A DNA stretch of 64,000 nucleotides. Origin: Flavobacteriales bacterium (GTDB lineage: Bacteria; Bacteroidota; Bacteroidia; Palsa-965). Positions 50,766 to 54,242 of the stretch are shown here, one piece after another. The position numbers were made by a program, and so were the translations under genes. Where the stretch lies: positions 64,001-128,000 of the forward strand of contig JBEIPA010000010.1 in the NCBI GenBank assembly GCA_040377305.1. The letters run 5' to 3'. Under the pieces are notes generated by a model that saw nothing but the letters and a program-made list of their open reading frames with translations, searched no databases and was not told the DNA's origin. Positions within the stretch are counted from its first letter, which is position 1. Each line of letters starts with the position of its first letter.

Positions 50766-51233
50766 ATGTGGAGAATTGGTTTTCTGGCGTCATACTCAAA
50801 ACGATGCTGGATGATTCGCTATTGTACTATATTTTTCCTGCTGATTTTCAATGGCGTAAGCAACGCTGTGTCTTGCCGACTCGTTGACACATCCGAAGCT
50901 TGTGACACGATTATCATCTCAATTGATCAGAAATTAATCCGAACCGTTTCAATTCCCGCGAGCGGGCAATATGATTCGACTACAACTGAGGTAAGAGTGA
51001 TTGTTCAGATCAAGAACGAATGCAACATCCGCATTCAAGTCTGGTACAATTCTCTGTATTATGAATTGACTTTACCTTCGGATTTGCGCGCCTACGGACG
51101 TGTAATTCACTTGAGCATATATACGTCAAAGGTCAAGAAGAGCACACCATCTGTATGCAGTTACGGTGCGCAGGCCGGGCAGCTTGGAGTTTGCGGATAT
51201 GGAATCGTCATGAAATGCGAGCCCAATGAATAA
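50766..51233 (+). CDS. Hypothetical Cys-containing, possibly secreted protein
   Basis: Fills the gap between xerD and the transporter; start uncertain (perhaps 50811). Confidence 0.45.
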   Translation: MWRIGFLASYSKRCWMIRYCTIFFLLIFNGVSNAVSCRLVDTSEACDTIIISIDQKLIRTVSIPASGQYDSTTTEVRVIVQIKNECNIRIQVWYNSLYYELTLPSDLRAYGRVIHLSIYTSKVKKSTPSVCSYGAQAGQLGVCGYGIVMKCEPNE

Positions 51234-51938
51234 CTACTCCGAAACCTTTTCCGCCGCTTCCTCCAGCAAATGCGCCTTCTCATCTCCCAGATATTTCTCC
51301 ACGATCCAGTGGAAGAGATAAATGAGCGGAGTCAATCCAATTGCGATCATTAGTTTGAAAATGTAATTGGTTGCGCCGGTGCTCATCCATTGCGATATCG
51401 TGAAGATTCCGGGAACAACGAATCCGATGAACAAGACAATGAACGTATCGATGAGCTGAGAGATGACCGTTGATCCGGTAGCGCGCAACCAAATGTACTT
51501 CCCTCCAGTTCTCTTCTTGAAATACCAGAATACGAATGAGTCAACGAGTTGTCCGACGAAGAACGCGGTGATACTACCTGCGATAATCCACATCGATTGC
51601 CCGAAGACCGCGTTGAATTGTTCGTCGTTCACAACACCCGGAACAACAAACGCCTTGGGTTGCATGGCGAGGTAGACGATCAGAAATGTGATGGCGATCA
51701 TTACGGATGTGATGACCGAAACCATTCTCAGAATTTTTCTCCCGTAATATTCGTTGATGATGTCGGTTGTAAGAAATACAATCGGCCAAGGCAGAATACC
51801 GACTATAGAAACGTAAGTTCCCATGCTACCGAGATCAATCTGGAACAACTTGGAACTGATCAACTCCGCCGTCACCGCGCAGGTAATGAACACTGCGATG
51901 AGCACTATGAGCAGACGTGTAGGTTTGTTGAGTTTCAT
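51234..51938 (-). CDS. yhhQ: Queuosine precursor transporter (VUT/YhhQ family)
   Basis: WPIVFLTTDIINEYYG, GSITAFFVGQLVD, WLRATGSTVISQLIDT. Start reassigned to MKLNKPT. Confidence 0.9.
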   Translation of the reverse strand: MKLNKPTRLLIVLIAVFITCAVTAELISSKLFQIDLGSMGTYVSIVGILPWPIVFLTTDIINEYYGRKILRMVSVITSVMIAITFLIVYLAMQPKAFVVPGVVNDEQFNAVFGQSMWIIAGSITAFFVGQLVDSFVFWYFKKRTGGKYIWLRATGSTVISQLIDTFIVLFIGFVVPGIFTISQWMSTGATNYIFKLMIAIGLTPLIYLFHWIVEKYLGDEKAHLLEEAAEKVSE

Positions 51939-51961
51939 CTGAAGTAAATATAAGCACAGAT

Positions 51962-52280
51962 AATCTTGAGGTGCCAAATTGGTACTTCAAGTTGCTGTTG
52001 GGCAGTGCTTTTCCAGTGAAATCTTGAGGTGCCAAATTGGTACCTCAAGTTGTTGTTGGGCAGTGATTTTCCAGTGAAATCTTGAGGTGCCAACTTGGTA
52101 CCTCAAGTTGCATTTTGGTGGTGTTTTACCACTGAAATCTTGAGGTGCCAATTTGGTACCTCAAGTCGCAGGTTGCGGTGTTGTACCATGAAATCTTGAG
52201 GTGCCAATTTGGTACCTCAAGTCGCAGGTTGCGGTGTTGTAACATGAAATCTTGAGGTGCCAATTTGGTACCTCAAGTTG
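51962..52280. repeat. Array of six 27-bp near-palindromes with related 29-31-bp spacers
   Basis: Core CTTGAGGTGCCAA(A/C/T)TTGGTAC(C/T)TCAAG starts at 51965, 52023, 52081, 52139, 52195 and 52251 (periods 58, 58, 58, 56, 56). Confidence 0.97.
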
Positions 52281-52304
52281 ACACAGGATTTAATCAATAC
52301 TTTA

Positions 52305-52312
52305 TATATTTG
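52305..52312 (+). promoter_or_regulatory. -7 promoter box of the ORF6N gene
   Basis: TATATTTG, 27 bp after the last array repeat. Confidence 0.6.
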
Positions 52313-52354
52313 CACATATAATTCACTATTTATCCATCTATATACCAATTTAAT

Positions 52355-52930
52355 ATGAAAGCGACAAAAAGATCAGCAATACCGAATGAAAGAATCATGA
52401 ATCGGATTTATTTCATTCGGGGACAAAAAGTGTTGATCGACAAAGATCTGGCATCACTCTACGCCGTTGAAACCAAAACATTGAATCGTGCTGTTCAACG
52501 TAACATCAAAAGGTTCCCGGCCGACTTTATGTTCCAACTCACTCCTGAAGAGACTGAAAACTTGAGGTACCAAATTGGCACCTCAAGCTGGGGCGGTAAC
52601 AGAAGAATGCCACATGTATTCACCGAGCAAGGTGTTGCCATGCTTTCAGGTGTTCTAAATAGTGAGCGGGCAATAATGGTGAACATTCAGATCATGCGCG
52701 TCTTTACGGAAGTCCGCAAAATGTTATTCGATAACTCCGAACTCCGCCTTGCTATTGAGCAAATCAGAAAGAAGACAGAAAACAACACGAAAAATATTGA
52801 AGTGGTTTTCCGGTATTTCGACGACTTTCTCGCGGCAAAAGAAAAAGAGAAACGCAAAGCAAGGAAATCTCCAATTGGATTTAAGCTCCCGAACACGACA
52901 CGAAAAAAAGTGGTTCGCAGAAAATCATGA
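52355..52930 (+). CDS. ORF6N-domain (KilA-N-related) DNA-binding protein
   Basis: RIYFIRGQKVLIDKDLASLYAVETKTLNRAVQRNIKRFPADFMFQLT...FTEQGVAMLSGVLNSERAIMVNIQIMRVF; C-terminal PIGFK. Confidence 0.93.
   Translation: MKATKRSAIPNERIMNRIYFIRGQKVLIDKDLASLYAVETKTLNRAVQRNIKRFPADFMFQLTPEETENLRYQIGTSSWGGNRRMPHVFTEQGVAMLSGVLNSERAIMVNIQIMRVFTEVRKMLFDNSELRLAIEQIRKKTENNTKNIEVVFRYFDDFLAAKEKEKRKARKSPIGFKLPNTTRKKVVRRKS
52561..52587. repeat. Intragenic copy of the array palindrome
   Basis: CTTGAGGTACCAAATTGGCACCTCAAG is the exact reverse complement of array repeats 4-6. Confidence 0.97.
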
Positions 52931-52948
52931 GTGCTGTTCTAACTGAAT

Positions 52949-52975
52949 CTTGAGGTACCAATTTGGCACCTCAAG
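52949..52975. repeat. Downstream copy of the array palindrome, overlapping the bioA stop codon
   Basis: CTTGAGGTACCAATTTGGCACCTCAAG is the exact reverse complement of array repeat 2. Confidence 0.97.
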
Positions 52976-54242
52976 ATTGTTTTGCACTCAGAAATTCCTG
53001 AATACTATTAAACACTTTCCGGAGTTGCTCGCTGGAAATGCAATACGGCGGTATCACATAAATCACATTACCAAGTGGCCGGATGATTATTCCGCGTTCG
53101 TGAAAAAATGGCGCGACCTTCTCTCCTACTGCTGCGAGATAACCGTGCTCTTGCGATTTCAACTCAACGGCCAATATGGTTCCACATGCCCGTGCATCTT
53201 TTACAAGAGGGTTTCCCAGAAACCATTCAGCTGCTTCGCGCATTGATTCAATCAGTCCTTGTATCTCGTTCCTGGTCTTCGGCAATTCAAGCAATTCTAA
53301 ACTAGCTACACTTGCTGCGCATGCCAACGGATTGGCGGTGTACGAATGCCCATGAAAGAATGTCTTCGTTCGATCTGCGGTTTCGTATGCAGAATAAATT
53401 TCCTTCGTACACAATGTTGCACCCAGCGGCATGAATCCACCCGTCAATCCTTTTGACAAACAAATGATATCCGGTTTGTGTTTGCAGCCGTCTGTCGCGA
53501 ACATTTTTCCTGTGCGACCGAATCCAGTCATGACTTCATCGGCGATGGTTATCACGCCGTGTTGCTTACACACTGCAATTAAGTTGTCAAGTGCGGCGTG
53601 CGAGTACATGATCATTCCAGCAGCACCTTGCACGATGGGTTCGAAAATGAATGCAGCCGAATTGGCATCGAGGGTTTTCTTAAGCGCGGTTATTGATTCC
53701 TCTTCTCTTCCTGGTACAGGAACCGGGATGTGAATCACTTCAAACAAAAATGGACTGAACGCGTTGCTGAAAACATTTCTTGCACCAACGGACATACTTC
53801 CGAACGTATCTCCGTGGTATGCGTTTTCAAATGCAATTACTTTTGTGCGTGGAGTTACTTTGTTGTGCCAGTATTGGAAGGCCATTTTCAGTGCGACTTC
53901 TACTGAAGTTGAGCCATCGTCACTGTAAAACACCTTGTCCATGTAAGGCAACTGTGATTTCAGTTTTTCGGCGAGAGCTACTGCAGGTTCATGTGTGTAT
54001 CCCGAAAACAACACATGCTCCATCTGATCGAGCTGCTGTTTGATTGCTTTCGTGATATGCGGATTGCAATGGCCGTGAATGTTCACCCACCAGGATGAAA
54101 TGGCATCGATATAGGTGTTGTTGTTTTCATCGAACAACAGTGCTCCTTTGCCACGAACCATGGCAACATTAGGTTCGGTGCCAATTTGTGGTGTGAACGG
54201 ATGCCAGATGTGTTGCTTGTCGCGATCGGAAAGAGAACTCAC
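52971..54242 (-). CDS. bioA: Adenosylmethionine-8-amino-7-oxononanoate aminotransferase
   Basis: HIWHPFT, DAISSWWVNIHGH, SDDGSTSVEVALK, ADEVMTGFGRTG, SKGLTGG, HGHSYTANP. Confidence 0.97.
   Translation of the reverse strand: MSSLSDRDKQHIWHPFTPQIGTEPNVAMVRGKGALLFDENNNTYIDAISSWWVNIHGHCNPHITKAIKQQLDQMEHVLFSGYTHEPAVALAEKLKSQLPYMDKVFYSDDGSTSVEVALKMAFQYWHNKVTPRTKVIAFENAYHGDTFGSMSVGARNVFSNAFSPFLFEVIHIPVPVPGREEESITALKKTLDANSAAFIFEPIVQGAAGMIMYSHAALDNLIAVCKQHGVITIADEVMTGFGRTGKMFATDGCKHKPDIICLSKGLTGGFMPLGATLCTKEIYSAYETADRTKTFFHGHSYTANPLACAASVASLELLELPKTRNEIQGLIESMREAAEWFLGNPLVKDARACGTILAVELKSQEHGYLAAVGEKVAPFFHERGIIIRPLGNVIYVIPPYCISSEQLRKVFNSIQEFLSAKQS

Follow-up and report, generated by a model that had tools for sequence, protein, structure and literature searches.

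Palindromic sites in or next to the gene of the protein that binds them are known from ParB/parS, with a parS site inside the spo0J/parB gene, and from lambda O, with iterons inside gene O itself. A similar arrangement is described here for a gene of a Flavobacteriales bacterium encoding a 191-residue ORF6N protein, which lies in a window of 64,000 nucleotides (positions 64,001 to 128,000 of contig JBEIPA010000010.1, GenBank assembly GCA_040377305.1) and is accompanied by eight near-palindromes of 27 bp. As suggested by comparative analysis, these palindromes are probably the sites of the ORF6N protein encoded among them, likely for the repression of its own gene. In contrast to ParB/parS and lambda O, the locus has no partner ATPase, origin, or distant sites, and its site rewrites the protein sequence. 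As in ParB/Noc, few interface residues would set specificity; in ParB/Noc, according to the available text of PMC7383237, specificity separates deep subfamilies, whereas here it switches between close orthologues.

In BstA/aba (Owen et al. 2021, PMC8585504), the gene is also solitary, its protein has a Bro-network-type N-terminal DNA-binding domain, and the cognate element lies at the locus of the gene, a placement shared by the predicted ORF6N sites. In the available text of that paper, BstA variants pair with their own aba elements, and aba is described as a 63-bp element that has direct repeats and extends over the start of the gene, the string "palindrom" having no occurrence. According to the same text, BstA is prophage-borne and abortive infection has been shown for it, whereas the ORF6N locus is not in a prophage and any defence activity of its protein would be hypothetical. 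The domains ORF6N, Bro-N, KilA-N, ANT, and Rha form the Bro network of phage antirepressors (PMC10111431, available part), and the protein matches PHROG anti-repressor families through its ORF6N domain (E 5.2e-29). In contrast to these antirepressors, it stands alone, with neither a recognised antirepressor C-terminal domain nor a prophage. Palindromes of which both arms encode protein are also described for Nematomorpha mitochondria, where, in the available text of PMC6649704, they are long, numerous, and not tied to a binding protein, whereas the ORF6N palindrome has 27 bp, occupies one place, and is tied to a helix residue. In a literature search outside which lay Iyer et al. 2002 and the bioRxiv PADLOC supplements, no paper was found on an ORF6N DNA target or on an in-gene palindrome. 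New at this locus are the largest site array in the sample and an orthologue pair with different helix and sites; new in the analysis are an explicit code table with out-of-sample tests and an empty-site comparison.

The eight palindromes start at positions 51965, 52023, 52081, 52139, 52195, 52251, 52561, and 52949 of the window. Six of them form an array (51965..52277) with periods of 58, 58, 58, 56, and 56 bp upstream of the ORF6N gene (52355..52930, plus strand). One lies within the gene (52561..52587, plus strand), where it codes for LRYQIGTS at a position conserved in the family, and one follows the gene (52949..52975) and includes the stop codon (52971-52973) of the convergent bioA gene. 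Seven copies match the pattern exactly, copy 1 (51965..51991) has one mismatch, at 51986, and no match was found in any of 100 shuffled sequences. Each copy is composed of one GGTGCCA arm and one GGTACCA arm. The six upstream copies, predicted sites of a protein with arginine at residue 45 (R45 class), point the opposite way to the in-gene and downstream copies, and each of copies 4-6 is the in-gene 27-mer exactly inverted. The array ends 27 nt before TATATTTG (52305..52312, plus strand), the likely -7 box of the ORF6N promoter. At its other end, copy 1 is separated by 12 nt from TATATTTA (51945..51952, starting at 51952 on the minus strand), the likely -7 box of yhhQ, and similar boxes were seen by eye upstream of yhhQ in the empty-site relatives L273, L277, and L278. 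The centre of copy 1 provides a TTTG 22 nt upstream of the yhhQ box, and the copy would overlap the -33 region of the likely yhhQ promoter; the boxes were assigned according to the Bacteroidota promoter consensus. An earlier note on this DNA had described the eight copies, the coding role of the internal one, the two periods, the 27-bp distance to the ORF6N box, and the place of the first repeat just upstream of the yhhQ box, and all of these observations were confirmed; to be added are the single mismatch in copy 1, the two unlike arms, the opposite orientation of the array, and the bioA stop codon in copy 8.

Within the array, the palindromes are identical at 25-27 of 27 positions, and units 1-2 and 4-5 form nearly identical pairs. 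The spacers are duplicates of one another with 19-29 matches of 29-31. Since spacer identity falls to 19/31 while the palindromes remain constant, the array is read as a local tandem expansion in which the sites were held intact and the spacers drifted. A CRISPR array was ruled out because the spacers are mutual duplicates and not unique. Contigs from a second run of a different study (X2) cover 51701-52218, which comprises copies 1-4 and almost all of copy 5, as well as 52921-53217 with copy 8; the longer upstream piece differs from the assembly at two positions, both within yhhQ. None of the listed X2 pieces crosses the whole array, and the exact count of 56-bp units is that of the assembly.

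Pfam assigns residues 16-100 of the protein to ORF6N (PF10543, E 4.7e-35, 120.2 bits against a curated cut-off of 27.8) and found no match to KilA-N in its 191 residues. NCBIfam has no family for it, and a PDB sequence search returned nothing significant. The protein is predicted to comprise a winged-helix-like N-terminal domain (residues ~11-104), long helices (104-169), and a basic tail. Its AlphaFold model is confident for residues 11-70 and has a helix at 40-49. The nearest folds are Dachshund/Ski winged helices (Foldseek probability 0.97, E 0.11; VIA Z 5.6-6.2, with Z 6.1, a root-mean-square deviation of 3.0, and 82 aligned residues). On this basis, the N-terminal domain is predicted to be winged-helix-like with residue 45 in the recognition helix, which would be encoded by codons 41-46 (KTLNRA, 52475..52492, plus strand); the R45 codon (52487-52489) predicts a GC step in the site. 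A homodimer prediction for residues 8-172 with the alignment built here scored 0.26, below the 0.42 mark, and is evidence neither way.

An in-gene palindrome is conserved throughout the ORF6N family. From 270 loci, 298 ORF6N frames were collected. Both anchors were present in 260 of them, and the 218 distinct ones came from genomes (99), metagenomes (74), and virus records (45); the labelled rows of the tree span 16 named phyla. When at least 9 of 11 pairs at the fixed coding position were required, a palindrome was found at the same place in 207 of the 218 genes, compared to 143 of 4360 synonymous recodings of the same peptides (3%) and 3 of 218 control stretches. Thus, palindromy of the codons for the L(R/K)xQxxTS motif in homologues, which the earlier note had proposed to examine, is the rule. 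The variable positions k4 and k5 (1.5-1.7 bits) are still paired in 92% of cases, with 33-41% expected. The peptide LRYQIGTS appears to be a by-product of the site, as the palindrome is read in another frame in four genes and is absent or off-code in seven genes that have a helix-fitting flank copy. The conserved family motif LxxQxxTS would accordingly be largely a translated DNA signal. A loose genus-wide pattern was too degenerate for its signal to be separated from the control. Motifs encoded by palindromes in this way may also occur in Bro-N, RhuM, KilA-N, Rha, and DUF1016 genes.

The bases at the variable site positions covary with residues of the predicted recognition helix. Among 125 single-site genes with less than 80% identity, 123 had a readable helix. 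Positions k4 and k5 track residue 45 most strongly (z 53 and 45), followed by residue 42 (z 23 and 26) and then by 46 or 44, and k7 tracks residue 41 (z 35). The residues tracking the site (41, 42, 45, 46, and 49) are encoded ~75-100 nt upstream of the palindrome. In the 123 genes, Q45 goes with CA (40/41), R45 with GC (30/33), K45 with TC (22/23), E45 with CG (23/23), and L45 with TT or TG (3/3). Five related genes of the KYLKR clade that lack the near-invariant R49 (L084, L239, L240, L244, and L251) have an A in place of the otherwise invariant C at the central k3. The code also fits all four off-frame palindromes, and in the 7 of 208 genes with a missing or off-code internal site an on-code copy is always present in the flank. 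As a linkage control, residues 48-69 reached a maximum z of 3.4 and synonymous sites one of 3.8 in 104 genes of canonical spacing, compared to 53 for residue 45. Residues 82-84 also covary with k8, k10, and k13, but this signal was not relied on, since they border the segment encoded by the palindrome and their alignment may be wrong.

Outside the original sample, 27 newly fetched regions yielded 23 readable genes, of which 22 fit the code (17 by the internal site and 5 by a flank copy); the remaining gene has T45 and a new step. Of the three ORF6N paralogues in the genome of the window, one carries R, one Q, and one E, and all three have a site that matches their residue. In a tree built without helix and palindrome (92 columns, weak support), sister tips are unlike in both traits in 26 cases, alike in both in 16, and unlike in only one of the two in none. 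The syntenic ORF6N orthologue in a second genome of the genus (G015; G000 being the genome of the window) is 75% identical and has K45 in place of R45. Its two upstream, one internal, and one downstream copies all belong to another variant, the K-type with GTTCC. The covariation most likely reflects protein-DNA recognition through the helix and not through the palindrome-coded peptide, because no class signal is seen in the codons that separate helix and site, because the code holds off-frame and in flank copies, where contact with the peptide is impossible, and because 22 of the 23 newly fetched genes conform to it. In the earlier note, the protein was proposed to bind a palindrome that encodes part of itself, site and protein changing together. 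This core idea has strong comparative support, but the residues that track the site are located in the helix and not in LRYQIGTS.

Copies outside the gene are concentrated close to it. Per 10 kb, there are 9.0 of them in the 250 nt upstream, 2.5 downstream, and 0.22 far away, which corresponds to an approximately 40-fold enrichment just upstream, and the upstream copies cluster at about -25 to -31 and -50 to -57 relative to the start codon. In an unbiased scan, 27 of 36 strong palindromes within 150 nt upstream carried the family core. Flank copies differ from the in-gene variant of their own gene at no more than two positions in 11 of 37 genes (mean distance 5.5 versus 6.6 shuffled, p 0.0004) and fit the helix code of their own gene in 22 of 40 (11.4 shuffled, p 0.0004). 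The tracking of the in-gene variant by flank copies, which the earlier note had named as a check of its idea, is thus seen only in part, close agreement being confined to those 11 genes. The locus described here has seven flank copies, the next largest counts in the sampled family being three. The predicted target of the protein is the locus of its own gene, as on-code sites were absent elsewhere in G000 (8 copies at one locus) and G015 (4 copies at one locus) and as 6 of 7 sites in five virus records lie within ORF6N matches. A related palindrome with a different centre was seen at G045:C1:10022-10046, outside the fetched ORF6N locus of this provirus. The INPHARED phage collection yielded no more than 5 records, all of them unannotated.

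Taken together, the ORF6N protein very probably binds its palindromes, and there is a fair likelihood that self-repression is its main role. Two protomers, probably joined by their long C-terminal helices, would read the two arms of a site. Occupancy near the promoter (copy 6), in the gene, and after the gene would hold expression down by occlusion, roadblock, or looping, and occupancy of copy 1 would affect the yhhQ promoter as well. With only ~100 nt between the helix codons and the site, the protein would be passed on together with its target as a single unit. Two features expected of autoregulation are present: a dyad site by the gene's own promoter and a link between site and helix residues.

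Several points weigh against this interpretation. With 27 nt between the end of copy 6 and the -7 box downstream of it, promoter occlusion is not obvious. Binding, dimer formation, and repression are predictions, as is the placement of residue 45 on the bases, and the model resembles known folds only modestly (Foldseek E 0.11, Z about 6). Only 43 of the 218 genes have a near flank copy and 175 have none, and flank copies are off the code of their own helix in 18 of 40 genes, possibly as lagging relics or as sites of paralogues. The code test for in-gene sites accepts either arm, and AC was admitted beside GC in the R class once this locus and L121 had been seen. On starred branches of the tree, the 4-6 independent pairs per class all point in the same direction or tie, none being opposite and none significant. 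Finally, the near-perfect symmetry at every position exceeds the usual need of a dimeric operator and is unexplained; template switching perfects quasi-palindromes, and such repair or a preference for cruciforms could add to the symmetry.

If each ORF6N protein reads its own site, the target of each member of this widespread Bro-network domain can be predicted from its own gene by the code Q-CA, R-GC, K-TC, and E-CG. The family would then be a large natural set of matched protein-operator pairs for the study of specificity evolution, and a possible source of orthogonal repressors. The present locus is a good test case, with eight sites of one class and a syntenic orthologue that has another residue and four sites of another class. 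It is rather doubtful, though conceivable, that ORF6N genes in general are self-addressed reader-site modules with a near one-residue code that changes from one close relative to another, the classes being exclusion groups in which a chromosomal copy silences or blocks incoming phages and mobile elements of its own class. If this were true, a protein-DNA recognition code could be read directly from the gene sequences of thousands of natural pairs.

A role mainly in defence or exclusion is unlikely as an alternative to self-repression. The protein would still bind its sites, either as a harmful protein with the array as a sponge in a BstA/aba-like self-immunity sink or by silencing same-class ORF6N genes of incoming phages and mobile elements. 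The profile hidden Markov model of the PADLOC defence candidate PDC-S05 matches the whole protein (E 4.7e-63), and one PDC-S05 member lowered plating of T7 and T5 ~1000-fold (PMC12881386, available text); however, that protein is described there as a Virulence_RhuM-domain protein and not as ORF6N. The PDC-S05 label itself is a prediction from embedding in defence operons (Payne et al., bioRxiv 2024.01.29.577857, available text), whereas ORF6N genes occur as readily in housekeeping operons such as gyrB-gyrA and pheS-pheT; hsdM and hsdS are another pair of genes between which they were found. Neither ORF6N nor its sites are mentioned in the available texts of these two papers, the bioRxiv supplements not being covered. 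Virus records carry ORF6N genes of the same site classes, and BstA combines a KilA-N-like domain with cognate DNA elements that work in multiple copies (PMC8585504, available text), but no effector domain was seen in the ORF6N protein. The specificity class has little tree signal (62 changes versus 67 shuffled), as an arms race predicts, but paralogues within one genome are not more class-divergent than chance (12 of 58 pairs of the same class versus 14.2, p 0.32), and over-dispersion of paralogue classes was accordingly not found.

The position of the cassette bears on a further alternative. As indicated by sequence comparison, it is an insertion with palindromes at both ends between bioA (52971..54242, minus strand), a class III aminotransferase gene, and yhhQ (51234..51938, minus strand), encoding a queuosine precursor transporter, because these genes adjoin in relatives without ORF6N. 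Among 26 yhhQ loci of the genus, ORF6N adjoins yhhQ only in G000 and G015. The comparison left out G012, and bioA lies within the locus in 21 of the 23 loci counted besides these two genomes, directly upstream of yhhQ; in the three relatives closest to G000, bioA stops no more than ~20 nt from where yhhQ starts. The name bioA is inferred from the Pfam match Aminotran_3 and neighbouring bio-like open reading frames (ORFs). In G000 as in G015, both ends of the insertion are palindromes, the neighbours of ORF6N genes are not conserved (no constant partner family among 143 proteins scanned of 163 listed), an asymmetry common to all eight copies suggests copying from one source, and flank copies unlike the in-gene copy remain self-symmetric (101 compensated versus 72 other differences). 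These observations would fit a small mobile cassette (REP-, attC-, or IS200/605-like) that has the palindromes as its hairpin or recombination ends, with ORF6N or another enzyme binding to them. This is nevertheless quite improbable, as the protein has no Pfam domain of a transposase or recombinase and the gene has no conserved neighbour of that kind; Y1_Tnp had one match among the 143 neighbour proteins and none in the gene or its two neighbours here. Moreover, dispersed copies are absent from G000, G015, and four of the five virus records, with the site in G045 as the one unexplained extra, most ORF6N genes have no flank copies, the loop has only 1-3 nt, and a hairpin leaves the residue-45 code unexplained.

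The layout resembles that of repetitive extragenic palindromes (REP) and their associated transposases (RAYT) in that short palindromes lie inverted on either side of a gene, one of them at a stop codon, and form local tandem arrays. In contrast to REP/RAYT, the palindromes are not dispersed, a transposase is missing, and one copy lies inside the coding sequence. A scan of the 5.18-Mb genome with up to four mismatches found only the eight copies of the ORF6N locus, which contradicts the possibility raised in the earlier note that the 27-mer is a genome-wide REP. A REP/RAYT system was ruled out since the sites occupy one locus each in G000 and G015 and an HUH (Y1) transposase is absent from the gene and its two neighbours.

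The least probable explanation is an RNA hairpin or a mutationally self-perfecting palindrome, its residue-45 link arising from intraprotein contacts or shared ancestry: the copies can fold at -7 to -18 kcal/mol, symmetry is preserved copy by copy, and template switching could perfect them, but coding-strand mismatches (G-T 22, A-C 64, other 132) are the opposite of the preference of an mRNA stem, the code holds in non-coding copies and other frames without linkage in the intervening codons, and the 22 Rfam matches at E up to 1 are all to miRNA hairpin models far below their gathering scores. The per-copy symmetry had initially been read as a hairpin, a reading that was dropped after the helix covariation and the residue-45 code had been found.

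The earlier note had also linked the protein to phages through its domain. The gene itself is a solitary chromosomal insertion without phage neighbours, and a prophage location does not agree with flanking genes that are adjacent in relatives. Other insertions of 0.3-1.1 kb without ORF6N are present between bioA and yhhQ in L276, L283, and L288, and the junction may therefore be an insertion hot spot. On the other side of yhhQ, a 155-aa ORF without a Pfam match (50766-51233) lies between xerD and yhhQ and is unique to G000 among the 26 yhhQ loci.

Variations of the gene-site arrangement were seen across the family. The E45 paralogue of the same genome (L323, G000:C24, ~77190-77300) has three in-frame palindromes, two E-type and one Q-type, and L306 has four; genes with multiple copies usually retain one or more that are on-code. 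A second small array lies upstream of L301 (G024:C33), an E45 gene that has no internal site, and consists of three E-like palindromes spaced 74-75 nt apart. In L085 (G002:C39), L088, L101, L108, and L188, ORF6N paralogues stand in tandem, as many as three together, and each has a site of its own. Longer ORF6N forms of 280-320 aa (L232, L255, and L257; P0006, P0007, and P0087), some of them fused to Phage_pRha, retain an on-code site where the DNA is in hand. In L001, L003, L005, L006, L008, L014, L112, L113, and L115, the central TTG of the upstream palindrome lies, by eye, 17-20 nt before a TA-rich -7/-10-like box, and the palindrome itself may supply the -33/-35 element. Many contigs of G000 also contain other dispersed palindromes, ~19 of the form AAACCTT..AAGGTTT, ~10 with an ATGGC..GCCAT core, and 3 of the AACCCTGC type, which resemble genuine REP-like families or palindromes within other small genes.

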